Positions 3,401-60,959 of a DNA stretch of 60,959 bases are shown piece by piece (position 1 is the first letter of the stretch; every line of letters begins with the position of its first letter). Source of the DNA: Candidatus Melainabacteria bacterium (GTDB lineage: Bacteria > Cyanobacteriota > Vampirovibrionia > LMEP-6097); contig JABHOV010000051.1 in NCBI GenBank assembly GCA_018695135.1, forward strand, positions 1 to 60,959, given 5' to 3'. The notes beneath the pieces were generated by a model, which searched no databases, was not told the origin of the DNA, and saw nothing but the letters and a program-made list of their open reading frames with translations. A program made the position numbers and the translations under genes.

Positions 3401-6400
3401 CTCTAAATTATCAGGACCAACTGATTTAGTGCAGGATTCAGTAGGTAACCTTTATGTACTTGATGATGGTAATAAACGTGTCAGGATTATTACAAAGGAT
3501 GGTTTGATTGATACTTATGCTGGTAATGGTAAGAATAAGCCAAGTTCGACTAAGCATTATGATGGTGATTTTGCGCTCAATGCGTCGTTTAATTATTTTA
3601 GGGGTATAGCGATTGATAGTGTGGACAATGTTTATATTACAGAAGCAGGAGGGCGAGAATGGCTTTATAAAATTAGTTCAGCTTTGCCAGGACGAGGTAA
3701 AACCAATTTCGTTTTGCCTGATAAATCAGGTAGAGAATACTATGTATTTAACAAGAAGGGAAGGCATCTCAAGACTTTGGATGCTGTTACCAACAGGCTT
3801 ATTTATGAATTTAAGTATAATGGCCAGTATTTAACTAGTATTCAAGATTCTTTTGACAGTGAGACTAGTATTGAAAGAACAGGCAAGGATTTAGAAGCCA
3901 TAGTTAGTTCTTATGGTCTTCAAACGAGCGTTAGCCTTGATGATAATGGTTATATCAATTCTGTAACGAATCCAGAATCTGAGACTTATTCGATGAGCTA
4001 CAGCAAACAAGGTTTGCTTAGCACTTTTACTAATCCTCGCGGCTATAGTTCTTCCATGAGCTATGACGCTAAAGGTAGATTGGTCAAAGATGAAAATGCC
4101 GAGGGTGGTTTTTGGTCACTACTGCGTACAGGCAAGAAGCGCGGTTATGAACTTGTCATGCAATCAGCTCTTGGCAAGAAAGTTATTCACAATATCAAAA
4201 AAACAAAAGATGGGACTTTTGATCGTTCTGTAACGAGGGCGGGGACTCAAGTCAATAAACAAATTGCTAAGAAAGATGGAACAACTACACTAATCAAGGC
4301 TGATGGGACTATTGTAGAATCAAGTATTGGACCAGATCCGAGGTTTAAGCTGCTTGCTCCTGTTTTTTCTGAGCTTAGTGCCACGCTACCTTCAGGCTTG
4401 AAGAGAGTTTTACAAGTGTCACGATCAGCAACTCTTGCAAATCAAAAGGATCTTGGTAGTTTGACCAAGTTTGTTGAAACGAAAACTATTAATGGTCGAA
4501 GATCTATTACTAATTATGATGCTGCAACAATGACCGTTACTAACAGTTCCCCAGAGGGACGAATAGAGACTATCCAGCTTGGTGAGAATAGTGAGATCTT
4601 ATCGCGTCAACTAGGATCTCTGGCCAAGCTTAGTTATGACTATGATGAGCGTGGACGTATTAAGACAGTTACGCGTGGTGAGGCTATCAATGAACGGGTC
4701 ACGGGCTTTGCTTATGATGATCATGGCTATTTGAATTTAATTAGCGATGCATTGAGCAACCACAAGAGTTTTGATCGAGATCAAATTGGACGAGTGCTGA
4801 AAGAACAAACTAATTCGAACAATCCAGTTAGTTATAACTATGATCAAAATAGAAATTTGGTAGGCTTGATACCTCCGAAAAAGGAAGAACATGGTTTTGA
4901 TTACAGTGCTGTTGACTTGCTCACCAACTATAATCCACCACTAGCAAGTAACACTGCCGCTAATTCAACAAATTATAGTTATGACCTAGATAAAAAGATC
5001 GGCATGATTAGTTTGGCAGATTCGCGTGATATTAGTTTTCATTATGATAAAGACAACGAAGAGCTTTTAGAGAAAATCGAACTTGCTAGAGGTGATATTG
5101 AATATAGTTATTACGACTCAGGGCAAGTCCACAAAATCAAAGCCCCTGGGGATGAGCTTAATAATTATTTTTACGATGGATTTTTACCAATCATGGAAGA
5201 TGTTGATGGTACTGTTGATCAGGATTATCGAATTACTTACAACGATAATTTCCAAGTGAGTTCCAGGACCATTAACGGTTCTACGGCAATTGATTTTGCT
5301 TACGATGATGATGGTGTATTAAGTCAGGCAGGTGATTTGAGTATTAGTCTCAATGGTGCAAATGCCTTGATTATGGGCTCCAACCTTGATGGTTTGCTGA
5401 CTCACCTTCGTTACAATAGTTTTGCTGAACCCCTTGGCTACGAGGTTGAGCTGGCAGGGGCTACTTTGTTTTCAGCTGACTATAACAGAGATAAATTAGG
5501 GCGCTTGCAAGCTAAGTCTGAAACAATTCAGGGAATTGAGACTGATTATAGTTATGAATATGATGATCAAAATAGATTGTCGCAAGTCTTAGTTAATGGT
5601 GTTTTAAAGAGTAATTATGAATATGATCAGAACAATAATCGAATCAAGGTTAATGGTATTCAAGTTGCTCAGTACGATGAACAGGATAGGTTAATTAGTT
5701 ATGGTGATAGTACTTACACTTATAACCCAAATGGTGACTTAAGTTCCAATTTGACTGGAGCTGTGACTGTGAATTATGACTATGATGAATTAGGTAATCT
5801 AGTGAGTTTCAATAAGCCTAGTTTGGATATCCAATATCTTATCGATGGAAACAATAGGCGCATAGCCAAAAAACTAAATGGCAATATTGTTCAGAGATTC
5901 CTTTATAAGGATCAATTAGAACCAATTGCTGAGCTTGATGCTTCAGGCAACATTATTACTCGTTATATCTATGGAACCAGACCACATGTCCCTGACTATA
6001 TGATCAAAGCCGGAACGAAATATAGAATCATCTCAGACAATATTGGTTCAGTTCGCTTAGTGCTTGAGGTCGCAACAGGCACTATCGCTCAGAGACTTGA
6101 TTATGATGAGTTTGGTAATGTAATTCTGGATACGAATCCTGGTTTCCAGGCATTTGGCTTTGCTGGTGGTATCTATGATACTGATACGAAGTTAGTTAAA
6201 TTTGGTGCACGTGATTATGATCCAGTAATTGGTCGTTGGATTTCCAAAGATCCAATCTTGTTTAATGGTGGTCAAGTTAATTTATACGTTTATGTAGCAA
6301 ATGATCCGGTTAATTTTGTTGATTTAAGTGGGACTGCGCAATTTGGTTATGGTTTTCTTAATATCCCTGGTACATCAATCAATATTTATAATACTAACCC

Positions 6401-6701
6401 TATTGATAATTTTTTTAATACAGAGTTGATCCATGAGCATTTGTTTTTTGAGGATGGTTCAGCTGATAGAGGCTTGTTTCCTGATAAAGTAAGATCCTTG
6501 AAAGATAAAGGATTTGAACGTGAAAAATATTTTAATAAATTTGGCCCACATTATGATGATGCTTTAATGAGGCAGGCTGTGAAAAATGCCGGAGATCCTC
6601 AGTACTGTCTTATTGGTTCTAACTGCCAAGACTATGCAGATAAATTGAGGGATGAATATGAGAGGCTAAAACAGGAGCAAGAGAGTAAATGCGGAAAATA
6701 A
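420..6701 (+). CDS. Teneurin-like RHS/YD-repeat polymorphic toxin precursor
   Basis: 2093-aa ORF with a TTG start after AAGGGA and signal peptide MRKPVLLALSLWMLGSQLLYA. Carboxypeptidase-regulatory/TTR-like segment (GKVFDHDGKPMTNVLVT). About six NHL-type blades (DGEIYFAEYRKIRKLD, GNLYVLDDGNKRVRII). Many YDxxGR(L/I) repeats. RHS core GARDYDPVIGRWISKDP...YVANDPVNFVDLSG. Confidence 0.9.
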   Translation: MRKPVLLALSLWMLGSQLLYAARLIKPSQLLTALSFENEENLFTGDQELDLEITTTQAIKKVLVSFSHKQAKKNPNKRTELVQTKELVSEINGNFLYQLKIPFDQTKELGEWFLRMKIIDKNNRKVVYKTKKLKNLVMDYSLNLINEEIIDDTGATNQEEPTPVEEEPNNSNTSSGSSSGGGSSPPPVDDPTVPPAPEPESLLQVPSLNPSNGDALDNISLLYNGTGAVQTGVDETAIDEVRASIIRGKVFDHDGKPMTNVLVTIHHHSEFGQTQTMKNGEYNMVVNGGIRTTMSYRATGFSDLQRTITIPSRDLWVLDDVYLTKLDSKANAIDLNVNNMQVTEASVCNDEDGERQAVLIIPPQTGVTMILPNGSSLSLESATVRATEYTVGANGQNAMPGTLPPTSGYTYALELSLDEAIAAGAAKVEFDKPLPFYVDNFLDFPVGEPVPIGYYDRDKATWVPSINGRIIKILDIVDGKAILDLTGDDIEANQSELDELGISLLELFELGSRYEIGKSIWRVMIEHFTPWDCNWPAGPPTDSVPPPDEAPEQDDENDPEDPCKESGSIIECESQNLGEKIHIANTGLDLVYNTSRVPGRKTGRTIRIKLADDREVPGSLEGIELTIRIAGRKIVKDFLANRDQEYIFVWDGKDVYGREIFGSVTAHIDLAYKYQIRYLAAREDVARSFALPNNDASDSPARYIGQRGNQTLRLTRSYTKILSNNDINKRLGLGGWSLSNHHYYDPQTKTMFKGDGDVIKANNIGEVLDLIYEDRLLFVNLNEFVIGTDGEFYILDYINSAIYKLDSSGNIYRIVGGGDSTEDGATGLDAKIRWPTAIAINNDGEIYFAEYRKIRKLDKFNRVYTVAGDGNVSFNRSPDETLATLANIGNVYDLEFDPEGNLLYSDTFNLIRKIDAEGILSTVAGKAPGGLLGDDMPVANASLTGLTGFDVSNDGSIYLLQSNKVRRVSPDGIIQTIAGQDSSGFAGDGEAAINSKLSGPTDLVQDSVGNLYVLDDGNKRVRIITKDGLIDTYAGNGKNKPSSTKHYDGDFALNASFNYFRGIAIDSVDNVYITEAGGREWLYKISSALPGRGKTNFVLPDKSGREYYVFNKKGRHLKTLDAVTNRLIYEFKYNGQYLTSIQDSFDSETSIERTGKDLEAIVSSYGLQTSVSLDDNGYINSVTNPESETYSMSYSKQGLLSTFTNPRGYSSSMSYDAKGRLVKDENAEGGFWSLLRTGKKRGYELVMQSALGKKVIHNIKKTKDGTFDRSVTRAGTQVNKQIAKKDGTTTLIKADGTIVESSIGPDPRFKLLAPVFSELSATLPSGLKRVLQVSRSATLANQKDLGSLTKFVETKTINGRRSITNYDAATMTVTNSSPEGRIETIQLGENSEILSRQLGSLAKLSYDYDERGRIKTVTRGEAINERVTGFAYDDHGYLNLISDALSNHKSFDRDQIGRVLKEQTNSNNPVSYNYDQNRNLVGLIPPKKEEHGFDYSAVDLLTNYNPPLASNTAANSTNYSYDLDKKIGMISLADSRDISFHYDKDNEELLEKIELARGDIEYSYYDSGQVHKIKAPGDELNNYFYDGFLPIMEDVDGTVDQDYRITYNDNFQVSSRTINGSTAIDFAYDDDGVLSQAGDLSISLNGANALIMGSNLDGLLTHLRYNSFAEPLGYEVELAGATLFSADYNRDKLGRLQAKSETIQGIETDYSYEYDDQNRLSQVLVNGVLKSNYEYDQNNNRIKVNGIQVAQYDEQDRLISYGDSTYTYNPNGDLSSNLTGAVTVNYDYDELGNLVSFNKPSLDIQYLIDGNNRRIAKKLNGNIVQRFLYKDQLEPIAELDASGNIITRYIYGTRPHVPDYMIKAGTKYRIISDNIGSVRLVLEVATGTIAQRLDYDEFGNVILDTNPGFQAFGFAGGIYDTDTKLVKFGARDYDPVIGRWISKDPILFNGGQVNLYVYVANDPVNFVDLSGTAQFGYGFLNIPGTSINIYNTNPIDNFFNTELIHEHLFFEDGSADRGLFPDKVRSLKDKGFEREKYFNKFGPHYDDALMRQAVKNAGDPQYCLIGSNCQDYADKLRDEYERLKQEQESKCGK
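6336..6698 (+). other. C-terminal toxin module of the RHS protein; candidate LRAT/NlpC-P60-like papain-fold domain
   Basis: About 120 aa follow the RHS core motif DPVNFVDLSGT. They contain LIHEHLFFEDG and, about 70 aa later, LIGSNCQDYADKLR. This resembles the H...NCEHF(V)xxLR arrangement of LRAT-family enzymes. Confidence 0.4.
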
Positions 6702-7777
6702 ATATTAGACATCCTGCAAAACCCCGTTTTGCTAGTGATGTCGACACAAAAAAGGTCGGAACGGTGCGGTGCACTAGTTCCGTTAGTAAAGATAAAGGGA
6801 ACTTTCGCAGGAACTCTATTATGGTGTTTCTAGCTCTAGGACTAGCTTCTTGTAGTTCTACCGAACAGCCTCGCCTGACGGGGCATGTCTTAGGGACAAT
6901 TTCAACAAGTATATATCATGTGAATCTGGAAGACGATAGCTTAGAGGACGAACTTGTTTATAAGGCTTCGAGCGTAATTGATCAAGTAGATTCGATTAAT
7001 TATGTCTATCCTGACACCATTATTTTCAAAGAAGGTTTTAGGATTGATGAATCTAATATTATAAAATATAATTTGCGAACTAAAGAAAAAACAATAATTG
7101 GCAATGGAATTCGTCCTCAATATATTAAAAAAATCAATGCTATCTTTTATTACAAAATCATTGGTGATAATTATTGGCTTGTACAGAGTAATCTAGATGA
7201 TTTAGATTCAATCAAATTTATTTCCAAAGTTATTGGTAAGTGTACTTTTCAGAATACTATCTCTTCCTCTTTACTGAGGGATATAACCATGATTAGTCCT
7301 AGTACAATTTTGTACGCAGATGAAAATTTTCAAATTAAGAAATATAATGTTATTACTGAGGAGCACCAAGATACCGAATTAGAGAATTGTATCCCTCTGG
7401 GCTATATTGAGCCTCTGGAGCAAATTATCTGTAGAAAGATTGCTTTGCCTATTAATAACTCTCCTGATGATGAGATTGTTACAGTGGATATTAATTCTTG
7501 GCAGGAAGTAGAGAATAGTTTACTGTCTAAGTATGATTTTGTTTCATACCTACCAGATATCAAAGCTCTTATTTATTCCAAAGCAACTTGGCCACCTTAT
7601 TCCTATGACCTCTATTTGTTTTCCTATGATTCAAATCGAGCAGTAAAAATTCGCAAGGGGCTTTTCTTTACTGCTGTTTGGTTGAAGGATTTTGATTATC
7701 CTGGTATTGGCATAGGTGAATCAAGAGATGAAGATGAGAGGCTAAACAAGGAACAGGAGAGTAAATGCGGGAAATAA
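6689..7777 (+). CDS. Putative immunity lipoprotein, paralogue 1, interrupted near its N-terminus by a 111-nt repeat element
   Basis: The ATG overlaps the RHS stop. Lipobox LGLASC follows the insert, and an alternative start exists at 6821 (MVFLALGLASCSS). The protein is paralogous to 7765-8697. Its last 19 aa copy the RHS C-terminal tip. Confidence 0.55.
   Translation: MRKINIRHPAKPRFASDVDTKKVGTVRCTSSVSKDKGNFRRNSIMVFLALGLASCSSTEQPRLTGHVLGTISTSIYHVNLEDDSLEDELVYKASSVIDQVDSINYVYPDTIIFKEGFRIDESNIIKYNLRTKEKTIIGNGIRPQYIKKINAIFYYKIIGDNYWLVQSNLDDLDSIKFISKVIGKCTFQNTISSSLLRDITMISPSTILYADENFQIKKYNVITEEHQDTELENCIPLGYIEPLEQIICRKIALPINNSPDDEIVTVDINSWQEVENSLLSKYDFVSYLPDIKALIYSKATWPPYSYDLYLFSYDSNRAVKIRKGLFFTAVWLKDFDYPGIGIGESRDEDERLNKEQESKCGK
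6707..6817 (+). mobile_element. MITE-like element, family A, full copy (111 nt)
   Basis: Ends TCCTGCAAAA / TTTCGCAGGA form imperfect terminal inverted repeats (TIRs). Internal hairpins GCAAAAC-CCC-GTTTTGC and GGTGC-GGT-GCAC. Near-identical to 54927-55037. Absent from the paralogous position in 7765-8697. Confidence 0.75.
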
Positions 7778-8697
7778 ATATTGTATTGATCTTAGTTTTA
7801 GGATTAGTTTCTTGTAGTTCTACCGAAAAGTCTCGCCTGAAGGGGCATATATTAGGGGCAATTTCATCAAAAATATTCCATGTGAATCTGGAAGACGATA
7901 GCTTAGAGGACGAACTTGTTTATCAAGCTCCGGATGTAACGGGTTTTATAGATTCGATTAATTATATCTATCCTGACACCATTATTTTCAAAGAAGGTTT
8001 TAATATCATGGAGAGCTACATCATAAAATATAATTTGCAAACACAGGAGAAAACTCGGATTGTACAAGGTACGTATCCTAGATATATAAAACAAATTAAT
8101 TCTCTTTTCTATTATAAATTAATTGATGCAAGTTACTGGTTAATGCAGCTTGATTTGGATGATTTTGATTCAATTAAGCCTATTGCCAAAGTTATTGGTA
8201 AATGTAGATTTGAGAATGGAATAGCTTCACCCTTAATATTGGATATAACAGTCATAGGCTCCGATACAATTTTGTATGCAGATGAAAATTTTCAAATTAA
8301 GAAATATAATTTTATTACTAATGAGCACCAAGATACCGAATTAGAGAATTGTATCCCTCTGGGCTATATTGAGCCTCTGGAGCAAATTATCTGTAGAAAG
8401 ATTGCTTTGCCTATTAATAACTCTCATGATGATGAGATTGTTACAGTAGATATTAATTCTTGGCAGGAAGTAGAGAATAGCTTACTGTCTAAGTATGATT
8501 TTGTTTCATACCTGCCAGATATCAATGCTCTTATTTATTCCAAAGCAACTTGGCCACCTTATTCCTACGACCTCTATTTATTTTCGTATGATTCAAATAG
8601 AGCAGTGAAAATCCGCAAAGGACTTTTCTTTACTGCTGTTTGGTTGAAGGACTTTGATTATCCTGGTATTGGCATAGATAAAGAAACTAATAAATAA
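7765..8697 (+). CDS. Putative immunity lipoprotein, paralogue 2
   Basis: MREINIVLILVLGLVSCSS signal peptide plus lipobox. The start overlaps the end of paralogue 1 inside the duplicated toxin-tip sequence. The C-terminal half is almost identical to paralogue 1. Confidence 0.6.
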   Translation: MREINIVLILVLGLVSCSSTEKSRLKGHILGAISSKIFHVNLEDDSLEDELVYQAPDVTGFIDSINYIYPDTIIFKEGFNIMESYIIKYNLQTQEKTRIVQGTYPRYIKQINSLFYYKLIDASYWLMQLDLDDFDSIKPIAKVIGKCRFENGIASPLILDITVIGSDTILYADENFQIKKYNFITNEHQDTELENCIPLGYIEPLEQIICRKIALPINNSHDDEIVTVDINSWQEVENSLLSKYDFVSYLPDINALIYSKATWPPYSYDLYLFSYDSNRAVKIRKGLFFTAVWLKDFDYPGIGIDKETNK

Positions 8698-10782: not shown

Positions 10783-11397
10783 GTGGCCAGCAATAATTCT
10801 GATGAAGACAAAACAGTAATGTGTCTTGGCGCTCCTTTGCCAAAAGAAATTTTTGAGGAGCTAAAAAAAATCCATCGCCCACAAATTGGAGGTATTCGTT
10901 GGAATGATCCACGTAATTGGTTTATTAATTTCCAAAGTTTTTTTAAAGCAAGACCAGAGCTTGATATGAAAAAACTTAAAAACGCTTTGACTGAAAAGAT
11001 CTATTACCCATATTATCCGATACTTTTGCAACCCAGAGATTTGGTTTTATCTCCGACTAATGCGAAGCCAAGAAGTTTGGAATGGAAATTTGATATTCTG
11101 AAACTCAAAGATCCGAATGCTAAGATACAAGATCAAATCACTGGTTTAACGAATGCAATGCAACAGGTTTTGAAGGAATGTACATCTTTACATCAAACTA
11201 TGGAATGTAACCCTTCTTTAATTTGGGCAAGGATTCCTGAATCAATGCACCAACAACCAGAACAAATGAAGGCATTAGAAAAGCTAGTGCACACGACCAT
11301 GGATGAAAAACAATTCTATTTAGAGAAGCTGTATATGGTTATGGTGACGAGGGATGAGTTTGGGTTGGACTATGACTATACCATTATCGAAGAATAG
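10783..11397 (+). CDS. Hypothetical protein
   Basis: 204-aa ORF with a GTG start 15 nt after thrS. No motif recognised. Its stop codon TAG is the first triplet of the palindromic element 11395-11601. Confidence 0.5.
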   Translation: MASNNSDEDKTVMCLGAPLPKEIFEELKKIHRPQIGGIRWNDPRNWFINFQSFFKARPELDMKKLKNALTEKIYYPYYPILLQPRDLVLSPTNAKPRSLEWKFDILKLKDPNAKIQDQITGLTNAMQQVLKECTSLHQTMECNPSLIWARIPESMHQQPEQMKALEKLVHTTMDEKQFYLEKLYMVMVTRDEFGLDYDYTIIEE

Positions 11398-11601
11398 TAA
11401 TTAAGCTCACTTTGTTCGCGGTTGCGTTCGCTTTGCTCACTGGTTGTGTTCGCCTTTCAGGCTCTCTGTTTGCTTCGCTGCCTCTTTCAATGTTATTTAC
11501 TGTAAGAGGCAGGAGCTTTAGCTCCGCAAGCAGCGAACAATAGAGAGCGCAACCAGTGAGCAAAGCGAACGCAACCGCGAACAAAGTGAGCTTAATTACT
11601 A
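11395..11601. repeat. Family B palindromic element, complete copy (about 207 bp, arms about 52 bp)
   Basis: TAGTAATTAAGCTCACTTTGTTCGCGGTTGCGTTCGCTTTGCTCACTGGTTG pairs with its reverse complement at 11550-11601. The interior is also largely self-complementary. The element lies between convergent genes. Confidence 0.8.
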
Positions 11602-13104
11602 TTTTTTCAACGACTTTTTATAACGTTCAACTTCTTCTTGTCTAATCACCAAGTCAAGAATAGTACTGGATCCAACAGGATCTTGCAAGCCGCCTTGAAC
11701 AATTGTAATCAGCATGTCCTGCATACAAAACTGTGAAAGATATTTTTCGTTTTGTTCAGGGATTATGGTTTGAATTACTACTGCCTTGTTATCAATTAAG
11801 TATTTGCCTAAAGCAATAATGTGATTGTCGATTAATGATTGATGGTTAGATTGCCCAACTAGGTCATCAAGACAATCAAGTGATTTGCTGTTGACATGGT
11901 CTTGAGCTGGTTTGCCCCAGTAGATTTGTTCAAGAACAAGTTTATTGTCTTTTTTGAATAATAATTCCAAGTCAGAGTGATGGTTAGCTGTTCCAACACC
12001 AGGTACTTGAATCGTTGAAGCAACTCCTGTCTTGTTGAGTGATTCACCTTTGAGCTGGGCTCTGAATTTATTTAGTGCTTCAAAAGAATCTGCGTAAACC
12101 ATACTGTAACGATTTTGCAGTCCTTTTTGAGTTAGTAAAATATCAAGAGCTGCTATTTTAGCTGCTTCAGATTCTTGAATTGATTGAGCAGCTTTGAAAT
12201 CCTCAAAGACATCTGCTGCTGCTTTGATCATTGCATCTGAATCAAGTCCCATTAATTCAGCAGTGAACATGCCAACTGGCGAGAACATTGAAAAACGTCC
12301 GCCAATATTAGGGTCGTTTGCCAGGAATGGAGGCTCTGTTCCTGTCTTAGCCTTGAGTTCAGTTCTTAGGTCATGTAAGAAATTCTTTTTACCTTCGCGA
12401 GCTGGTTCGGTGATGAATACAGATTGAGCTGCAAATTTAGCATGACAGTTTTGTGATTCCTCGCGACAACTATCACCATTCGTGGAACTAGTGCTTTGCA
12501 CCGTTCCAACCTCTTTTGTGTCGACATCACTAGCAAAACTCTGTTTTGCAGGATGTCTATCCCAGTGATCAAGAATAGTTGCTACATTACGCCTCACTTC
12601 ATCAGTAGTACCTGATTTGGAAATGAAAACAAAAAGAGTAGAGTCTAAATCAATTGAATCTAGTCTTGCAAGTAAAGAACTTGGGTCTAAGTTATTTTGT
12701 ACCGTGAATTTGTTGCCGCTTGGAGTGAATTCATTTAGTGAGTTTTGTAAAACTAATGAATTGATTCCAGAACCACCCATGCCAACTATTAAGTAGTGCT
12801 GGTAATTCTTGGCGAGCATTGCTTTGGCTAATGCTTTAGTTTCTTGATTGGCTTCTAGTAGATAATCAAAGTCGAGCCATTTATAATATTCAAGTGGTTT
12901 AGCTCCATTTGCAGTAACAAGATTGTTTTGGACTTCTTTGAATTTAGCTTCTAGTGAAGAAAGAAGTTGGTCGTAGTCGGCTTGGTGTAGAGCGACTGCG
13001 TTGTCAATATTGCTTAGTTTCTTGGTTAGTGTTTTGGTCATGCATGGAATTATACCAGCCAAGCTTAACCCTGTTATAATCTCAGTATTATGCGGATTCA
13101 TCAT
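11599..13104 (-). CDS. pgi: Glucose-6-phosphate isomerase carrying an in-frame repeat-element insertion
   Basis: PGI signatures GMGGSGI, ISKSGTTDE and NIGGRFSMFSPVG are present. A segment of about 37 aa (RHPAKQSFASDVDTKEVGTVQSTSS...) corresponds to repeat family A. Confidence 0.88.
   Translation of the reverse strand: MMNPHNTEIITGLSLAGIIPCMTKTLTKKLSNIDNAVALHQADYDQLLSSLEAKFKEVQNNLVTANGAKPLEYYKWLDFDYLLEANQETKALAKAMLAKNYQHYLIVGMGGSGINSLVLQNSLNEFTPSGNKFTVQNNLDPSSLLARLDSIDLDSTLFVFISKSGTTDEVRRNVATILDHWDRHPAKQSFASDVDTKEVGTVQSTSSTNGDSCREESQNCHAKFAAQSVFITEPAREGKKNFLHDLRTELKAKTGTEPPFLANDPNIGGRFSMFSPVGMFTAELMGLDSDAMIKAAADVFEDFKAAQSIQESEAAKIAALDILLTQKGLQNRYSMVYADSFEALNKFRAQLKGESLNKTGVASTIQVPGVGTANHHSDLELLFKKDNKLVLEQIYWGKPAQDHVNSKSLDCLDDLVGQSNHQSLIDNHIIALGKYLIDNKAVVIQTIIPEQNEKYLSQFCMQDMLITIVQGGLQDPVGSSTILDLVIRQEEVERYKKSLKK
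12450..12558 (-). mobile_element. MITE-like element, family A, copy inside the pgi coding sequence (right end diverged)
   Basis: The reverse complement reads AGACATCCTGCAAAACAGAGTTTTGCTAGTGATGTCGACACAAAAGAGGTTGGAACGGTGCAAAGCACTAGTTCC..., colinear with 6707-6817. Confidence 0.7.
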
Positions 13105-13142
13105 AGATTTGCTGCGAAAATCCCATTTGCCCTACTCATCGG
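13105..13142 (-). mobile_element. Truncated family A element (right-end fragment) abutting the pgi start codon
   Basis: AGATTTGCTGCGAAAATCCCATTTGCCCTACTCATCGG aligns with the reverse complement of the right end of the other copies (AGAGTTCCTGCGAAAGTTCCCTTTATCTTTACTAACGG). Confidence 0.5.
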
Positions 13143-13278
13143 CTGTTTGATTGGTGCAAGTCCAGTAAGTGCGAAACTTAGTTTCTGGGATAGTATGATG
13201 CTCAATATCAAAAAATCTTTAACACCGTCTGAATTTATTTGCGATAAATACGAAGAATGAGCTTATGAGACTCGGGTT

Positions 13279-13485
13279 TTGCGACCTGGCATGAAGCTAC
13301 CATTTACTGAACTTAAATCAAACACGCGTTATTGTATCGAATGGCAAGAAGCCCCAGATGCAGCAATCGGTAAGAGTTGTAAAAAATATGCCTATGAAAA
13401 CAGTTCGGGAACCGAAAATGAGCAGTTCTATCAAAAAGTGACTAGATACCGTACTGTCTGCGTTGAAGGGCATAATAGCCGTTAA
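13279..13485 (+). CDS. Small hypothetical ORF (68 aa)
   Basis: Only an ORF call, with no motif. A terminator-like hairpin on the same strand lies 150 nt downstream. Confidence 0.2.
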   Translation: MRPGMKLPFTELKSNTRYCIEWQEAPDAAIGKSCKKYAYENSSGTENEQFYQKVTRYRTVCVEGHNSR

Positions 13486-15060: not shown

Positions 15061-15813
15061 TTAGTTGCGCAACAAGGATTGAATAGAGAAAGCAGTCGCT
15101 TCTTTGTTTGCTCTTGCAATACTGTCAGTCAGAGGGATATCCTTTGGACAGGCCTTCACACATTCTTGTGCGTTACCACAATTGTTGAGACCGTTTTCAA
15201 TTAGTGCACTAGTTCTTTCATCCTTAGTGCTTTGACCATTGGGGTGGCTATTAAACAATACTGCTTGTGAGATTGCTTGAGCTCCAATAAAACCATTGTC
15301 GTTTGTCCATTGCGGGCAAGCTTCCAGGCAGCAACCACAAGTCATGCAACGACTGAGGCTATAGTTTTCTTCTTGGATACTTGGATCAACCCTTGGTCCT
15401 TCACCTAAGTCATAGACACCGTCTACTTGAATCCAGGCTTTGACTTTTTTGAGAGCTTCAAACATATTGGATCTATCAACCATCAAGTCGCGTTGAACAG
15501 GAAACTTGGTCATTGGTGCAATAGAAATTGGATGAGATAAATTATCAACTAGCGCTGTGCAGGCTTGCTGAACTTTGCCGTTGATTACCATTGTGCAAGA
15601 ACCGCAAACCTCTTCAAGGCAGGCAGATTCGAAACTGACTGGTGTGGCATCTTTGCCTTGGGTATCTTTGGGGAATTGTCTTGTCGCCATGAGTAATGAA
15701 ATTACATTCATTCCATGCTCATATGGCACCTCAAATTCTTGGTTATATGATTTAGACTCTGGGCAGTCTTGCCTCTTAACCTTGAATTTGATTCCCTCTG
15801 TTTTATTCGTCAT
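15061..15813 (-). CDS. sdhB: Succinate dehydrogenase/fumarate reductase iron-sulfur subunit
   Basis: Cys clusters CLEEVCGSCTMVINGK....C, CMTCGCCLEACP and CGNAQECVKACP. Start chosen at MTNKTEG (15813), because the longer ORF runs into the inverted repeat. Confidence 0.85.
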   Translation of the reverse strand: MTNKTEGIKFKVKRQDCPESKSYNQEFEVPYEHGMNVISLLMATRQFPKDTQGKDATPVSFESACLEEVCGSCTMVINGKVQQACTALVDNLSHPISIAPMTKFPVQRDLMVDRSNMFEALKKVKAWIQVDGVYDLGEGPRVDPSIQEENYSLSRCMTCGCCLEACPQWTNDNGFIGAQAISQAVLFNSHPNGQSTKDERTSALIENGLNNCGNAQECVKACPKDIPLTDSIARANKEATAFSIQSLLRN

Positions 15814-15822
15814 TACAAAGAA

Positions 15823-15830
15823 ATAATAGC
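15823..15830 (-). promoter_or_regulatory. -10 box (GCTATTAT on the minus strand) 9 nt upstream of the sdhB ATG
   Basis: The minus strand reads GCTATTATTTCTTTGTAATG, with no SD. Confidence 0.3.
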
Positions 15831-15855
15831 AACAATTTGGGTTTTTGCCACACGG

Positions 15856-16064
15856 TAGCCACACACGTCTCAACCTTTACCACTTTTTGAGATAAGATCC
15901 CACCCGCTGCGTGACATACGCCACTTTTAAGATAAAAAGTGCCTTTGCCAGGTCCAACATGGAAATACCAATGTGGTATGTTATTTATCTTGAAAGTGGC
16001 GTATGTCACGCAGCGGGTGGGATCTTATCTCAAAAAGTGGTAAAGGTTGAGACGTGGGTGGCTA
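15856..16064. repeat. Large near-perfect inverted repeat (81-bp arms, 47-bp spacer)
   Basis: 15856-15936 is the reverse complement of 15984-16064 with about 2 mismatches. It produces mirror-image spurious ORFs on both strands (MTYATFKI...GVCHAAGGILSQKVVKVET). Confidence 0.9.
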
Positions 16065-16076
16065 AACTTTATCTGC

Positions 16077-16084
16077 GCTATAAT
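16077..16084 (+). promoter_or_regulatory. GCTATAAT -10 box 6 nt upstream of the ATG at 16091
   Basis: GCGCTATAATATCTTAATG, with no SD. Confidence 0.4.
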
Positions 16085-16090
16085 ATCTTA

Positions 16091-18301
16091 ATGCGAGCGA
16101 CAGAGCAAGTTAAACTGAATATTATTTGCCCTCAAGACATTGGTGGCAAGAAAGCAGAGCTTTTAAATCATATTGGGGAATTATTTAGTTTGAAAGCCGC
16201 TCAAGTCTCTGAGAAGCTTGATATCAGTGTTCACCAAGTTGCTGAAACGGATCTTGTGGCTCAGGCTAAGTCTTTAGAAAATACTCGTAGTCGTAATGAA
16301 ATTACTCTGTTGTTTATGCCTGAAAATAAAACTAAGTCACGGCAGGCTGGGTTCGAGCAAGCAAAATCGGCTCATCAGCTTAATGATTTAGTAGGGCACT
16401 ACCGCACGAAGAGACCAGGTCATTCTCTTTATACTGTTTTACTTTCTGATCAATCAAAAAATGCTTTTGGAGATATTAGCTCAAATCACAATCTTGTAAA
16501 TAGCTTGATGACAAGATCTACAAAGGGGAAACTTCGTTTGCGAGATGATAAGTATGAAGCTTTAGCAAGAGTGAATTTAGATGATTTAGAAACGAAGCAA
16601 GACCAGCAAGACTTGGTTAGCAAAGTTTTGCGCAAAGTTTTTTATGATTCGAGAAACGCCATCTCTAAAACGAAGTTAAAGGAAAAGTCAGTTGCAAAAT
16701 TTCATGATATTGCAGATGCTGCACAAGTGCGTTTGCGCAAAAACACGCTGCCTGACTTGCATAAGTTGTTTAAGGTCTATAACAAGCTTACCGGTGAGAA
16801 GGTGCTTGCAGATGAATTACTAGAACTGCGCAGATGTGGCATTAATGCAAAGACGCATTATAAAGGTTACCTTAATGAGCTAGATTTAGTTTCAATCCGT
16901 CTTTGGACTGAGCAGCAAAAAGAACCGATTGCGACTGACGCTTTATTGAATAAATTTGTAGAGATTACTAAGAGAGTTCCTAAAGCTAAACAGTTAGCTC
17001 AAGTTGTATATCGACTTGAGCTTGATTTGGCTGATGATGGTTTTGGGCTTAAGACCTTGGCTGCAGAGATGAAAGCAAATGAATCAGCAGATGATGCACA
17101 AATGAGGCAAGCAAAAAAAGCACTTTGGGCTCCAATAAAAGAAATTGGATTAAAGGCAAAAGAGCTTGCTGGTTTTACAGCTCCCAATGCTGTTGATTAT
17201 TACAATGCTTGTATAGAGCTTGGGCATGGTCCTGTGCTTCTAGATGAAATTAAAGTCTTTGCTCGTGAGTCTGGGATTGGTTTTGCTGGTGCTACCACTA
17301 AGGTATTAACGGGCGTGGAGAAAACTCTTTTAGAAGAATGGCTTGCCGCACAAATTAAAGAATACGGCAGTATTACTGCAAACGAATTTCTATCGATTTA
17401 TATGGCTGTGATTGATCACAAGGCTGTCTTGAGCCGGAATAGTCTTGATAAATTGGTTGAGGCTAATGAGCTTAGTTTGGCTCGTCGTGAAGAGCAAAAT
17501 CTGATTGTTGATAGACCAGCTATTGCCACGGCAGTTGTAAAAAAACCTAAGTATGAAATTCAAATAGATGAGTTTAAATCCAAGTTCGAAGAATTAGTAA
17601 AGAGCCAGCCCAAGCACATAGCCCTGTTCAATGCTTTTGTGGATGTTTATAAATATATTCCAGCTGATACTGTGGGTGCACTTACACTGCAATCTCGTTC
17701 TATTCAAGCGATTGAGAACGATGCAAGTTTTGCCAAGGAAGAGATTATGAGCACTAATGATTTGACACCTTCTGTTCTAGCAAGAATTAATGCTTGGGCT
17801 GCAGCTCAAATTAGTGCTGGTAAGAGATTGAGTAATCGAGAATTGGCACATATGGCATTCCATGTACTTGAGAAGTTGCCCTCAAGGACTACTGTCAATG
17901 AGATTGTACAGAAATGCCCAGAGAACGTAGCTCCTTATGATCAGGATAAAGCTATCGTTGATTTGGTTGATGAGCCCGAATTGTCTAAGACTGATTCGCA
18001 AGTTAACCTTCGTTCTTTGCTCAAGGACTTAGATTCTGAAGAGATGGATCGTGATCAAGCTTTGACTTGGGTCGCTGAGTATTTAAGAATCAATCGCGCG
18101 ACTACAGAAGTTGATGAAGGTATCACTTCTCTGCAATTTGATGATTTTTGTAATGATCGCTGGTCACCTGGTACAGATGCTCAAAGACTCGGTTTAGCTT
18201 TGTTTGCTTTATATCAAGAACCATCAAACAGGTATGGATCTTTACTAAGAACAGAGCATAATTGGGATCATTTTGTTGCTCGATTGGGTTCTTCGCTATA
18301 A
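16091..18301 (+). CDS. Large hypothetical protein (736 aa), no recognisable domain
   Basis: Long uninterrupted ORF. Start moved to MRATEQ (16091), because the upstream part of the ORF is inverted-repeat sequence. Confidence 0.6.
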   Translation: MRATEQVKLNIICPQDIGGKKAELLNHIGELFSLKAAQVSEKLDISVHQVAETDLVAQAKSLENTRSRNEITLLFMPENKTKSRQAGFEQAKSAHQLNDLVGHYRTKRPGHSLYTVLLSDQSKNAFGDISSNHNLVNSLMTRSTKGKLRLRDDKYEALARVNLDDLETKQDQQDLVSKVLRKVFYDSRNAISKTKLKEKSVAKFHDIADAAQVRLRKNTLPDLHKLFKVYNKLTGEKVLADELLELRRCGINAKTHYKGYLNELDLVSIRLWTEQQKEPIATDALLNKFVEITKRVPKAKQLAQVVYRLELDLADDGFGLKTLAAEMKANESADDAQMRQAKKALWAPIKEIGLKAKELAGFTAPNAVDYYNACIELGHGPVLLDEIKVFARESGIGFAGATTKVLTGVEKTLLEEWLAAQIKEYGSITANEFLSIYMAVIDHKAVLSRNSLDKLVEANELSLARREEQNLIVDRPAIATAVVKKPKYEIQIDEFKSKFEELVKSQPKHIALFNAFVDVYKYIPADTVGALTLQSRSIQAIENDASFAKEEIMSTNDLTPSVLARINAWAAAQISAGKRLSNRELAHMAFHVLEKLPSRTTVNEIVQKCPENVAPYDQDKAIVDLVDEPELSKTDSQVNLRSLLKDLDSEEMDRDQALTWVAEYLRINRATTEVDEGITSLQFDDFCNDRWSPGTDAQRLGLALFALYQEPSNRYGSLLRTEHNWDHFVARLGSSL

Positions 18302-18813: not shown

Positions 18814-18819
18814 TCCCCC

Positions 18820-18870
18820 GATCTTTTTTGTGTCGACATCACTAGCAAAACGGGGTTTTGCAGGATGTCT
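18820..18870 (-). mobile_element. Truncated family A element (left half)
   Basis: The reverse complement reads AGACATCCTGCAAAACCCCGTTTTGCTAGTGATGTCGACACAAAAAAGATC, identical in layout to 6707-6757. Confidence 0.55.
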
Positions 18871-19647
18871 AATGCTAAAATAAAAACCATGACTGAAGCA
18901 GTACTAGAGCAAGTAAATATGAACAAACAACTTAAGGACAAAGTAGCAATTATCACTGGTGGAACAAGAGGGATTGGCAAAGCCATCGCTGAATTGTTTG
19001 CCGAACAAGGTGCTCAAGTGATTATCACCGGTAGGTCTCCCGAATCACAAGTAGCCGCCCAGATTGGTGACAATGTTAAATACATCGGCTGTGATATTGG
19101 CGATAAGCTAGCTTGCGAGAATCTCATCAAGTCGGTTCTTGAAGAATTTGGCAAGATTGATGTATTGATTAATAACGCTGGTATCACTCAAGACAACTTA
19201 TTTGTGCGCATGAAAGAAGAAGAATGGACAAGTGTGATGGACGTCAACCTCAATTCTTTGTTCTATCTATGTCAGCCAGTTATTAAAGCAATGTCTAAAC
19301 AAAGATCAGGAGCGATTATTAATATGAGTAGCGTGGTTGGTTTACACGGTAATCCAGCTCAAGTGAATTACTCGACAAGCAAAGCCGGTTTGATTGGTTT
19401 TACAAAGTCACTTGCTAAGGAATACGGACGTCGCGGAATCAGAGTAAACGCGATAGCGCCAGGCTTCATTCAGACTGATATGATTGGTCATGTTGCTGAA
19501 GAAACACAAAATAAATATAAAGAAAACATCCCACTTGGTGGCTTTGGATCTGGTAAAGATATAGCAGAAACGGCGTTATTCCTTGCTGGCAGTGCTAATT
19601 ACATCACCGGTCAAGTAATACAGGTTGATGGTGGCTTGTTTATGTAG
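18865..19647 (+). CDS. fabG: 3-oxoacyl-ACP reductase
   Basis: [18 protein letters not shown] and YSTSKAG motifs. The first ATG lies inside the repeat fragment, so the true start is more likely 18889 or 18919 ([15 protein letters not shown]). Confidence 0.9.
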
Positions 19648-54547: not shown

Positions 54548-55054
54548 CTATTTACCAATGATCCATGCTTTTACTCCCAAGCTTGTATCAAGACTGCTTT
54601 CTGTAGCATAGTCATTCCAGTTATTGTCATCATAAATATCTATAGCTTTGCTTTGTGTTTGGGTAGTTTGAGGTTTTGGTTTTTGGACTATGATTTGCTG
54701 ATGGATTTTTTGGGGATTGGCAAAGACTCCTGTGAGCTTCGCCGATCTTGGGTAGTTGATTTGAGAATTGCGCTGCTGGCTTTGAGGACTTGCCTTGAAA
54801 GCAGTTTGCTCTTGCATAAAAACAAATTTGTAATCAAGTAAGGCTTTTTTCTTGGCTGTTTTGCGTTTGATTACTATGGTGTTTTGATTGGCTGATATCG
54901 GATTGATCAAGCCGATGAGTATGACTAGGCATCCTGCAAAACGAAGTTTTGCTAGTGATGTCGACACAAAAAAGGTCGGAACGGTGCAAAGCACTAGTTC
55001 CGTTAGTGAAGATAAATGGGACTTTCGCAGGAATTTTATTAAGATGATGAGCAT
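54548..55054 (-). CDS. Hypothetical protein; N-terminal about 40 aa encoded by the antisense strand of a family A element
   Basis: 168-aa ORF. Residues KFLRKSHLSSLTELVLCTVPTFFVSTSLAKLRFAGC are element-derived. The true start may lie downstream. Confidence 0.4.
   Translation of the reverse strand: MLIILIKFLRKSHLSSLTELVLCTVPTFFVSTSLAKLRFAGCLVILIGLINPISANQNTIVIKRKTAKKKALLDYKFVFMQEQTAFKASPQSQQRNSQINYPRSAKLTGVFANPQKIHQQIIVQKPKPQTTQTQSKAIDIYDDNNWNDYATESSLDTSLGVKAWIIGK
54927..55037 (+). mobile_element. MITE-like element, family A, full copy (111 nt)
   Basis: Colinear with 6707-6817 and the same length. Hairpin loops differ (GAA, AAA). Confidence 0.75.
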
Positions 55055-55065
55055 TGTTTTCTCCT

Positions 55066-55689
55066 TTAGAAAATTAGGTCGATAGCTTTCTTGGCGATGT
55101 TTTGTACTAGTGGGCTGGTCATACGATAATTCATATAGTCGTAGTCAATTTTTTTTGCTTGTACTCGTTTATTGACAGGGACTGGATAGGAGTTGAAGTA
55201 AGGTGGATAATGTGGGGCTTGTGCCTTGAATTTTGATGGTTCAACTATGCGTTTTGGTTTTGCTGGATTTTGGAAAGCGTGTGCTTGTTTTTTATCACTG
55301 TTTACAATCTCCATAGCCTGCGCATTAGCAATCTGCCAGCTGGTGATCTCATCTTGCAAATGGCTTAGCCTGACTGGAATCGGTCCCTTTTGTTTGTCAC
55401 CAAAGATAGCAGTTTCTAGTCTTTCGAGCCGTTTGCCAGGGTTCTCTAGTTTGAAATCTCTTCCCGGATAAATCAAGAATTCTAATTGGTCCAAGAAAGG
55501 ATAGCCCTTGATTTTGGGAGCTAGCACTCTTGCTTGCGGGTGTTGATTGTAGCTGCGACCTAGCTGCACACCGGGATCTGTCATTGGATTGATGATGATT
55601 GGTTTTAATTGTTGCTCCAGTAATTTACTGCTGCCGTTATAAGCGCAGACTGCTGGCTGAACTAAAATCAATAAAAGAATTATGATCAT
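55066..55689 (-). CDS. Secreted hypothetical protein
   Basis: Signal peptide MIIILLLILVQPAVCA. Overlaps the upstream gene by 53 nt. Confidence 0.5.
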   Translation of the reverse strand: MIIILLLILVQPAVCAYNGSSKLLEQQLKPIIINPMTDPGVQLGRSYNQHPQARVLAPKIKGYPFLDQLEFLIYPGRDFKLENPGKRLERLETAIFGDKQKGPIPVRLSHLQDEITSWQIANAQAMEIVNSDKKQAHAFQNPAKPKRIVEPSKFKAQAPHYPPYFNSYPVPVNKRVQAKKIDYDYMNYRMTSPLVQNIAKKAIDLIF

Positions 55690-59375: not shown

Positions 59376-60959
59376 TTATACTATTTGATTCCTGTTATAA
59401 AACCTCAAGGCTTTGGTTAGTAATTCATCATGGATTCTTGAATAAACCTCAGAGCCCCAAGTTGTTTTAATTGCTGCTGACCAATCTTCTCTCAATGTAT
59501 CATCCGCAGGAGGATCAGGTAAAGTTTGTACCGTCACATCACCAGTCTCCATATCTCTAATACTTAGTTCAACCCCATCCGTCCCCGCAGGATCTAGCTT
59601 AATAGTCCAATTTCTCTCATCACTAATTCGAAAAGGATCTGCATCAATTAAAACAGGAGTACCAGCTTTAGAGTCTGAGTTCAAATACCACTCTCGCCAA
59701 TTATAGACTTCATTAAGCATAAAGTCTGTTTGATTGAAGTTTGGAGCTAACTCTGGCCTGATATTGAAAGTCCCATTAGTCAAGTGCTTATTATGATCCT
59801 GAAACCCTCTATCTAATAGAGACAGCACCAACTGCAATTTCCTCCAAATAGATTTGTATGCCATGACGGCTTGATAAACATCTTGATGACTGTTATTGCA
59901 ATTACCAAAACCACCACGCAAAGTATCAGCGGTACATAAATTATAGACATCAGGATCCTTCATTAGTGAATGAGCATCAAGACCAGCAGTTAAAATATCT
60001 GATTTTGATACATCGTGACCAGAGTAATTTCTTAGTTCAACTTTACTAGCATTGATTTTGTCTTTAATTTTTTTGCTTGGTACCATTAGGATTACTGTAT
60101 TAGTTGGATTATCGAAGTGATCATTATAAAAAATTGGAGAATAATCTTGAACTTGTCCAGCGCTATCTTGGAGTGTGACTGATGAGTTTGACATAATGAC
60201 ACCACCACGCATAATGCTTATTTCGGTTGCTTCCAAATCGTCAAAATTGTTAGAAGCAATTCCAACGGTATCTAAATATCCACTTGGTATACTTTCAAGG
60301 ATTTGTTTTTGTATCTCAGGAACTCGTAGATTGTCAAAGTGCCAAGCAATACCTGGAAACTCTAAATCTAAGTGTTTTTCTTTAGAACAATTAAGACGAT
60401 ATGAATCACTTTCACTATGTGCAAGATGTCTTAAATTACGCTCTAACAAAGAAACTAGTGGTTTTTCAATTCCTCTGATTGGTCTTGCAGCCTGGGTCAA
60501 TGCTTCAAAGCCATGGAAAATATCTAAACCAAAATCATAGACTTCACCAATTTGATGAGGAAAGTGTATTGGACTACCAGCAGGGTAATTAGCAATTGAA
60601 TGAGAGATAGTTGGTAGGACTGTATCTCTTTCATTTATCAGCCCTCTTCGATTAAGTTCTTCAAAAGCAAGGGTAGATAAATCATTTACTGCCTTTGTAA
60701 ATTCTCCTTGGTTGGAATATAGATTTTTACTGAGAGCTTTTTTGAAATTCCTTAGGGCTATATTAACTGATGGCAAAGTGTTTTCAACTTGAACTAAAGC
60801 GACAAAGTCGTTAGTGTAGTCATCAGGATAGAATCCGTGTTGTTTGCAAGCCGCCAGACCTTGTTCATATATTGCTAACTGTTCGTCGGAAGGATTTTTT
60901 TGAACTAAAGCGACAAAGGCGTTAGTGTAGTGATAAGTATTAAATCCGTGTTGTTTGCA
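59376..60959 (-). CDS. Hypothetical protein, 5' end outside the window; N-terminal 37-aa tandem repeats
   Basis: The frame stays open from the listed TTG (60776) to the window edge. The upstream part encodes repeated ...CKQHGF(Y/N)..YTN(D/A)FVALVQ units. Confidence 0.55.
   Translation of the reverse strand, partial: CKQHGFNTYHYTNAFVALVQKNPSDEQLAIYEQGLAACKQHGFYPDDYTNDFVALVQVENTLPSVNIALRNFKKALSKNLYSNQGEFTKAVNDLSTLAFEELNRRGLINERDTVLPTISHSIANYPAGSPIHFPHQIGEVYDFGLDIFHGFEALTQAARPIRGIEKPLVSLLERNLRHLAHSESDSYRLNCSKEKHLDLEFPGIAWHFDNLRVPEIQKQILESIPSGYLDTVGIASNNFDDLEATEISIMRGGVIMSNSSVTLQDSAGQVQDYSPIFYNDHFDNPTNTVILMVPSKKIKDKINASKVELRNYSGHDVSKSDILTAGLDAHSLMKDPDVYNLCTADTLRGGFGNCNNSHQDVYQAVMAYKSIWRKLQLVLSLLDRGFQDHNKHLTNGTFNIRPELAPNFNQTDFMLNEVYNWREWYLNSDSKAGTPVLIDADPFRISDERNWTIKLDPAGTDGVELSIRDMETGDVTVQTLPDPPADDTLREDWSAAIKTTWGSEVYSRIHDELLTKALRFYNRNQIV

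Follow-up and report, generated by a model that had tools for sequence, protein, structure and literature searches.

The Correia elements of Neisseria, also termed NEMIS, are mainly intergenic repeats with 26-bp inverted ends and a site for integration host factor; they are known to provide promoters, terminators and RNase III substrates, and copies next to gene starts can supply expression signals. The REP and REPIN (RAYT) sequences, and those MITEs (transposable elements of the miniature inverted-repeat type) that derive from IS200/IS605, such as Nezha of cyanobacteria, have neither terminal inverted repeats nor target duplications; they carry similar subterminal hairpins at both ends, or a GTAG-hairpin unit, and use a fixed 4-5-nt left target. 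Repeats may also reside within genes. Two reviews (PMC10969869 and PMC3184786), drawing on Ogata et al. 2000 (Science 290:347), describe the Rickettsia palindromic elements (RPE), designated RPE-1 to RPE-10, as palindromic repeats of 105-150 bp that occur in frame in metabolic genes unrelated to one another, with one conserved peptide encoded by each family. QMITE1 and QMITE2 of Coxiella burnetii are MITEs that sometimes lie in frame in open reading frames (ORFs), to which they add residues (PMC5896051), and intragenic ERIC sequences and the MITEb and MITEe elements of Anabaena represent further in-frame bacterial MITEs (PMC10969869). The present analysis concerns a repeat of about 112 nt found in a 60,959-nt contig of a Candidatus Melainabacteria bacterium (JABHOV010000051.1), the whole of which is referred to as the window, where one copy is situated in frame within pgi, the gene for the housekeeping enzyme glucose-6-phosphate isomerase (PGI).

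This repeat constitutes a MITE family not recognised before, one that housekeeping enzymes tolerate in frame, and the explanation favoured here, with a probability of roughly 0.8, is that of a mobile, non-autonomous element whose in-frame insertions have been accommodated by the genes receiving them. An earlier note, made from the letters of the window alone, had listed five copies, and all were found again in their places through a repeat search over the whole window, an nhmmer profile built from the copies and, for a relic near 13105 too short for nhmmer, a pattern describing the right end (Table 1). The two canonical full copies are 88% identical across 121 nt; the conserved 26-mer GTTTTGCTAGTGATGTCGACACAAAA occurs four times in the window (0 in 100 shuffles); and the core of the relic, AAATGGGATTTTCGCAGCAA (13109-13128, minus strand), agrees with the degenerate right-end pattern AAATGGGAYTTTCGCAGSAA at 20 of 20 positions, for which 0.01 matches are expected. 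The wider tally of copies draws on the 61-kb window, one metagenome-assembled genome (MAG) of a sister lineage and short public metagenome contigs, 29 of which were retrieved by a scan with a 20-mer core. It comprises 22 distinct copies with unrelated flanks. Far from being restricted to the stretch first described, the repeat occupies no fewer than 17 further distinct sites in contigs assembled from metagenomes, which represent the same population or sister ones. Approximately one quarter to one third of the observed copies are inside genes, with most being intergenic or beside gene ends, in both orientations. Within the window, for example, the canonical copy near 55 kb has 55066-55689 on one side and the true start of 54548-55054 on the other, both genes being on the minus strand, and the half copy lies between the smpB stop (18813) and the fabG start (~18889). 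In what follows, labels of the form L001 denote MAG or metagenome contigs, and those of the form P0146 denote proteins compared in the analysis.

Table 1. Copies of the repeat and associated features in the window
Feature	Position	Strand	Evidence
Full copy, canonical; 112-nt element with flanking TT..TT	6705-6819	+	nhmmer E 4e-39
Full copy, canonical; GAA/AAA-loop subfamily	54925-55039	+	nhmmer E 2e-36
Full copy, in frame in pgi	12452-12559 or 12560 (12456-12560 by the profile)	-	nhmmer E 3e-28
Left half (hairpin 1 and A-run, 55 nt)	18818-18872	-	nhmmer E 9e-18
Right-end relic, ~44 nt, 68% identical	13105-13148	-	core pattern match 20/20
Empty site in tandem paralogue 7765-8697, MREINIVLILVLGLVSCSS	7765-7800 (site ~7779-7782)	+	comparison with 6689-6860
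pgi coding sequence, 480 aa + stop, start at MTKTLTKK	11599-13041	-	orthologue comparison

As had been noted from the sequence, the copy in pgi contributes the peptide RHPAKQSFASDVDTKEVGTVQSTSSTNGDSCREESQNC between the SKSGTTDE and GGRFS motifs of the enzyme. No homologous segment is present in any of the 73 aligned PGI orthologues, including the closest insert-free protein, which is 96% identical and is encoded by a syntenic MAG (GCA_027618255.1, labelled 'Cyanobacteria bacterium'). The empty site of the sister MAG reads CACTGGGG-TA-GCAATTGC and the filled site of the window CACTGGGA-TA-GACATCC...GGAATCACA-AAACTGTC, a net addition of 105 nt (35 codons) with both flanks collinear with the orthologue. 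This copy, which encodes DRHPAKQSFASDVDTKEVGTVQSTSSTNGDSCREES, has an intact left end (TAGACATCC) and an eroded right end, and has lost 6-9 nt in frame; a 6-nt in-frame deletion is internal. The 501-codon ORF originally reported (11599-13104, minus strand) is open, as claimed, but is over-extended by 21 N-terminal codons that are found in none of the aligned orthologues and are absent too from the 480-aa form of this PGI that comes from NCBI, on a 60,959-nt contig; conservation with the relative starts approximately 30 nt upstream of the ATG at 13041, at GCTGGTATAAT. Between 13042 and 13075, an extended -10-like box (TGGTATAAT) that is also kept in the relative ends approximately 8 nt before the true pgi start, which suggests that the mRNA may be leaderless or have a very short leader. 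At the other end of the gene, an inverted repeat with 62-nt arms, 95% complementary, and a 93-nt spacer (11390-11606) lies between the pgi stop and a convergent ORF of 204 aa; the motif CGCAACCAGTGAGC of this repeat is found again at ~50.7-51.9 kb (families D8, D13 and I9 of the window repeat search), and it probably represents another repeat family.

On sequence grounds, the interrupted pgi is very likely functional, given its low ratio of non-synonymous to synonymous substitution (dN/dS), its retention in variants and assemblies, and the confidently predicted PGI fold of its product. Against the insert-free relative, dN/dS is 0.086 with a dS of 0.27 (445 codons), which places pgi under strong purifying selection, and the same 501-codon ORF is found, identical, in at least four independently assembled samples. 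Variants of the protein diverged by approximately 4% keep the insert, differing at 16-19 of 444 residues outside it and at 1-3 of 36 within. The possibility raised earlier that pgi might be an unexpressed pseudogene thus finds no support in these comparisons. An AlphaFold2 model based on a 74-sequence alignment has a mean predicted local distance difference test score (pLDDT) of 92.3 and a complete PGI fold, with template modelling (TM) scores of 0.72-0.83 against solved PGIs. The insert is modelled as a loop: residues 163-190 are low-confidence coil (pLDDT 50-69) between the helices at 147-162 and 191-205, and the rest of the model averages above 90. It is exactly at this point that orthologue length varies, by up to 8 residues. 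The Pfam PGI match covers just residues 97-180, a weakness that is a property of the whole PGI clade rather than of the insert. We infer from this combination of features that PGI activity has been retained.

Tolerance of the repeat in frame, proposed on the basis of PGI, extends to several other housekeeping enzymes. A frame tally was taken from the DNA search, which is unbiased for frame, counting copies well inside long ORFs; six such in-gene copies were found, in pgi and in the genes for a VTC-domain protein, TsaE, EPSP synthase, MurI and an unnamed protein. Orientation and frame (RHPAK...) are identical in all six. The consensus is stop-free in four of its six frames, the remaining two beginning with the terminal TAG, and were the four open frames equally tolerated, the chance of six copies sharing one would be ~(1/4)^5 = 0.001. 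The frame in use has a grand average of hydropathy of -1.39, as against +0.35, +0.01 and +0.47 for the other open frames, and selection for a soluble, loop-like peptide would explain the bias. A peptide search identified an acyl-CoA synthetase-like protein with an internal copy in the same frame. Domain matches behave variously around the insertions: that to VTC spans the insert (residues 18-262), those to TsaE and EPSP synthase are each split in two, and the racemase match in MurI ends at residue 182, five residues before the insert, with the far side aligned to the orthologue.

The MurI with the element is encoded on a metagenome contig; its closest orthologue, P0148, has exactly 38 residues fewer at the insert site, and P0147 retains just the last (3') third of the insert as a 14-aa remnant, so that among the MurI proteins compared (P0146-P0149) one loop shows an allelic series of a full 38-aa insert, the 14-aa remnant and no insert. 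In a more distant MurI orthologue, this loop is occupied by a different, unrelated insert of ~27 aa, and it is therefore a permissive hot spot. A composite 184-nt variant of the element itself, with a nested 69-nt (23-codon) insertion in the loop of hairpin 2, is found at two or more different loci (L005 1483-1666, L009 328-511 and L012 2201-2384); the RHPAK frame is open through it in L012, and not in L005.

Occupancy of matching sites differs between relatives. Over a 14-kb syntenic region, the pgi copy is present in the window and missing from the sister MAG, while the latter has an extra copy at the 5' end of fabG that the window is without; insertions have therefore taken place on both branches since the split (dS 0.27). 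The half copy beside smpB is common to the window and the sister MAG at an orthologous place, and so was inserted before the lineages separated. A further filled and empty pair is found among the tandem paralogous lipoprotein genes of the window (6689-8697), which repeat with a 962-nt period, are 74-84% identical and of which just the first has the element; their comparison reveals a 114-nt (38-codon) insertion flanked by TATT. The size differences between filled and empty sites thus stand at 114 nt in the lipoprotein paralogue, 114 nt in MurI and 105 nt in pgi. Small size (less than ~500 bp), terminal inverted repeats and dispersed copies with presence and absence at matching sites, all criteria of a MITE, are therefore seen in this family.

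The consensus of the element can be written TAGACATCCTGCAAAAC-nnn-GTTTTGCTAGTGATGTCGACACAAAAAAGGTCGGAACGGTGC-nnn-GCACTAGTTCCGTTAGTAAAGATAAAGGGAACTTTCGCAGGAACTCTA. At a length of ~112 nt, its open frames encode 37 residues at most, so it has no capacity to encode a transposase. The imperfect inverted ends described previously are borne out as terminal repeats of ~16 nt (TAGACATCCTGCAAAA / TTTCGCAGGAACTCTA), complementary at 13 of 16 positions in the consensus; over the 22 copies, 86% of cells pair, whereas displacing the partner by 1-3 columns leaves 25-48% paired. Folded as single-stranded DNA (z = -3.9), the element forms two hairpins, one of 15 bp that takes in the left end and one of 10 bp that is bipartite; the two are dissimilar, and the right end is without a hairpin. 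Two hairpins with variable loops had been recognised beforehand, although the first is longer than was supposed, its stem of 15 bp reaching the left end. Across the 22 copies, the stems are 98.9% paired, with four compensatory pairs, and the two 3-nt loops are the most variable columns, at 1.7 and 1.3 bits of entropy against 0.03-0.24 in the stems and linker. This hypervariability is partly due to subfamilies, with canonical copies, which are mostly intergenic, having CCC/GGY loops and many in-gene copies having RAA/ARA loops.

Most copies are flanked by TA at both ends. In 11 of 17 copies, the left TA is preceded by the same base that follows the right TA, a full 2-bp NT duplication is found in 9 of 17, and a 4-bp TAWT duplication matches 5 of 13. 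The duplication generated on insertion could possibly be either TA, in which case 111 nt would be added, or the 2-bp NT, in which case 114 nt would be.

The family appears to be narrowly distributed. PGI relatives in species-representative genomes belong to Candidatus Melainabacteria, Caenarcanales/Caenarcaniphilales and Vampirovibrionia, the best being 69% identical, and the host is therefore an uncultivated, non-photosynthetic bacterium of the cyanobacterial lineage, one of the Vampirovibrionia near Caenarcaniphilales, with no close relative among those representative genomes. An exact 22-mer has no match in 185,579 species-representative genomes, so at that stringency the family is in no GTDB representative, and the nhmmer family profile gives no significant match in 409 kb of pgi loci from 30 other Vampirovibrionia or allied genomes. 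BLAST searches of the element against plasmid and phage collections were likewise without a match; five viral contigs matching the 17-nt left end were dismissed as chance, there being no similarity beyond the seed, and an over-long PGI match on L060 was traced to masked Ns. At the protein level, an exhaustive HMMER search with the 38-residue peptide against 1.84 billion representative proteins returned 13 matches, a number that itself points to a narrow distribution; among them are the acyl-CoA synthetase-like protein, several N-termini that are over-extended, and three giant, repeat-rich proteins matched by chance. A word-indexed peptide search gave five matches and missed even PGI, making it uninformative on abundance. 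The full-text literature searched contains no description of MITEs or palindromic elements in Melainabacteria or Caenarcaniphilales, with one survey of insertion sequences naming both.

Several copies lie at gene starts. ORF 6689-7777 has its copy in the same frame as pgi does, as had been observed, but this copy may not be the translated insert that it was taken for. It separates the n-region of a lipoprotein signal peptide from the h-region (MRKINI, 38 aa, MVFLALGLASCSS) and directly precedes an ATG at 6821 that opens MVFLALGLASCSS, with AGGA 8 nt before that ATG. Given this position and the signals at 6821, the copy is poor evidence for translation; the shorter lipoprotein starting at 6821 is more probably the product, with the copy being a 5'-end or signal-peptide insertion. 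In the sister MAG, fabG gains GGGAGG and a new ATG from the copy at its 5' end. On the plus strand, the relic at 13105-13148 forms the first codons (MRIHHRFAAKIPF) of a small secreted-protein ORF divergent from pgi, and since a relative has the same gene with the same N-terminus, the relic is old and now part of the gene. The sister MAG has this gene (13090-13485, plus strand, in the window) as one uninterrupted ORF of 131 aa (L002 9290-9685), whereas the window copy of the gene is divided into ORFs of 56 and 68 aa by a TGA in frame behind DKYEE (13258-13260), which could reflect a pseudogene, a strain variant or read-through.

Two other repeats were encountered elsewhere in the window. A near-perfect inverted repeat (15856-16064; 81-nt arms, 98%, 47-nt spacer) lies between the divergent genes 15061-15873 (minus strand) and 15911-18301 (plus strand), overlapping both called starts. 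Two 60-nt direct repeats, 90% identical and 111 nt apart (60789-60959), are unrelated to the element and probably represent a tandem repeat cut by the window edge.

A second family of similar construction was recognised through a marginal full-length profile match on L036 (E 0.74), which proved to be a diverged element (5932-6042, minus strand; TAGACCTCTTTCGAAAC...). Its layout consists of a terminal TAGAC hairpin, an A-run and a second hairpin (z = -10.7), and its sequence differs from that of the first family. In L036, which comes from a species with 60% PGI identity, its position is immediately upstream of fabG, the counterpart of the smpB-fabG interval that a half copy of the first family fills in the window. 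A 17-nt end of the second family is also found upstream of pgi in the sister MAG (L001 9843-9900, plus strand). Taken together, the two suggest a broader superfamily with a shared architecture.

On the reading favoured here, a transposase acting in trans presumably moves the repeat, inserting it with a short duplication at AT-rich, TA-containing sites (T-A-W-T) and adding 111 or 114 nt, both divisible by three. Owing to this length and to the four stop-free frames, insertion into a gene could occur without frameshift or truncation. The surviving insertions would be only those placing the hydrophilic frame in a permissive surface loop, where they would persist as a disordered loop of ~36 residues, slowly eroding by in-frame deletions. 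In pgi, the target may have been a TA in the length-variable loop beyond the helix that comes next after the SKSGTT phosphate-binding motif, leaving the enzyme functional. We infer, in short, transposase-mediated mobility and a selective filter on frame.

A number of observations sit less comfortably with this account. No transposase or autonomous partner with the same ends was detected in the 61 kb of this genome and the short contigs. The right-hand TA is constant even where the left TA is not, and the flank match in 11 of 17 copies would fit a 2-bp NT duplication better, such that the target duplication is not cleanly defined. The fabG copy of the sister MAG is non-canonical, with a truncated right end and flanks of AAAGAC. 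Near-invariance outside the loops, together with the existence of the similarly built second family, hints at a structural requirement beyond simple transposition by inverted ends. In some short contigs, moreover, the left flank of one copy is combined with the right flank of another (L018 relative to L016 and L021; L008 relative to the window copy near 55 kb), reflecting either copies that have recombined or chimeric assembly over the repeat; contexts drawn from such contigs may thus be chimeric and call for care.

An alternative is that the element is chiefly a functional structured nucleic acid, comparable to REP, BIME or Correia sequences, whose hairpins act on mRNA stability, termination, processing or translation start and whose in-gene copies are by-products. 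The 98.9% stem pairing, the four compensatory pairs, the hypervariable loops and the folding score of the DNA (z = -3.9) could all be read in this manner, as could the second family (z = -10.7) upstream of fabG in a distant relative, where the window has its half copy in the same intergenic place, and the copies that end just before start codons, which have AGGA or GGGAGG at the spacing of a Shine-Dalgarno sequence (at 6821 in the window, at fabG in L001 and at a SpoU-family methylase gene in L006). However, four compensatory pairs among 22 close sequences constitute weak covariation. Rfam 15 gives no match to the element at E values up to 1, its sole match in the window at the gathering score being to tRNA-Ser, the only tRNA there, and a scan for promoters and terminators identified no such site within the element. 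Copies are also found in both orientations relative to their neighbours and in the middle of genes for six unrelated enzymes, and their flanks and empty sites bespeak insertion events rather than conserved regulatory leaders, leaving this alternative improbable.

It is harder still to credit that the 37-residue peptide is the selected unit, as a mobile coding module serving as an interaction or localisation tag or as a site for a protease or modification. All in-gene copies do use one frame, the 5' two-thirds of the peptide (RHPAK.SFASDVDTKKVGTV.STSS) is kept in old in-gene copies while the 3' third drifts, and the pgi insert changes at so few residues between diverged variants; yet the hydrophilicity of the frame accounts for the single-frame bias, and conservation is at the DNA level, synonymous positions and stems included. 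Most copies are outside genes or by their ends in either orientation, the peptide is predicted with low confidence to be disordered, and genes are kept where the insert is mostly deleted (MurI P0147) or absent (the sister MAG). Its unrelated carriers number ~10 among the 1.84 billion representative proteins, several of them through over-extended gene calls. Least credible of all is that the pgi insertion is an artefact of assembly across a misjoined repeat, or that the gene is a decaying pseudogene, notions to which the mixed flanks of L018 and L008 and the restricted Pfam match lend some colour. Against these stand the identical ORF in four assemblies, the insert at the same place in ~4% diverged variants, flanks collinear with the orthologue, the dN/dS, the predicted complete fold and the clade-wide nature of the Pfam weakness. 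An intein or mini-intron was rejected, the insert being just 35-38 residues long, present also between genes and conserved at the DNA level.

More speculatively, the element could be one member of a lineage-wide superfamily of selfish elements adapted to genes, independent of the Rickettsia phenomenon and with a mobility that depends on two hairpins, a proposition that is rather unlikely at present. In such a superfamily, the length in multiples of three, the stop-free frames and the hydrophilic, 'loop-friendly' peptide would be adaptations, mobility would depend on the two-hairpin architecture instead of on sequence, the hosts might be free-living or predatory Vampirovibrionia, and hairpin-recognising transposition of an undescribed kind might be involved. 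If this were true, the elements would also be a source of new gene parts: the N-terminus of the secreted protein at 13090 would be an example, as would fabG of the sister, with a ribosome-binding site and a start codon likewise derived from an element.

The family has practical consequences for the annotation of these MAGs, as the repeat stretches ORF calls (at 6689, 13104 and 54548-55054), lowers the scores of domain models and may give rise to chimeric contigs. It also offers a natural experiment on loops tolerating ~36 extra residues, with full, partly deleted and empty alleles across pgi and murI. More generally, in-frame selfish repeats in essential enzymes have so far been regarded as near-peculiar to Rickettsia, and a second, unrelated and clear-cut case, in a class of bacteria about which little is known, indicates that the phenomenon recurs.

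In form, with its inverted ends and TA-containing flanks, the element is closer to Correia elements or IS630-type MITEs. It has in common with Correia elements a MITE size of ~100-155 bp, terminal inverted repeats, TA at the insertion site, abundance and a position beside gene starts, but in-frame coding residence is not a Correia hallmark. With REP, REPIN and the IS200/IS605-derived MITEs it shares the character of a small, hairpin-dominated repeat whose stems are conserved and compensated; identity with either the IS200/IS605 or the REP/RAYT class was rejected, inverted ends being present, the hairpins dissimilar and the right end without one. QMITE, ERIC and the Anabaena MITEs, when in frame, are mostly at gene ends or in hypothetical proteins, whereas this element is found inside conserved enzymes. 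In behaviour, it resembles RPE in its size, its palindromic, hairpin-rich nature, its many copies, its occurrence in frame in unrelated housekeeping genes with the same peptide each time, its host proteins that are predicted still to fold with the insert at a permissive place, and its additional intergenic copies. By contrast, its host is one of the Vampirovibrionia from aquatic metagenomes and not an obligate intracellular alphaproteobacterium, it has terminal inverted repeats and TA-containing flanks, and a minority of its copies are in genes. The designation 'RPE-like' given in the earlier note is consequently apt for the in-frame behaviour and the single peptide, though not as a statement of homology: the element may best be regarded as an analogue of RPE by behaviour, set apart by its host and by description rather than by comparison of sequences.

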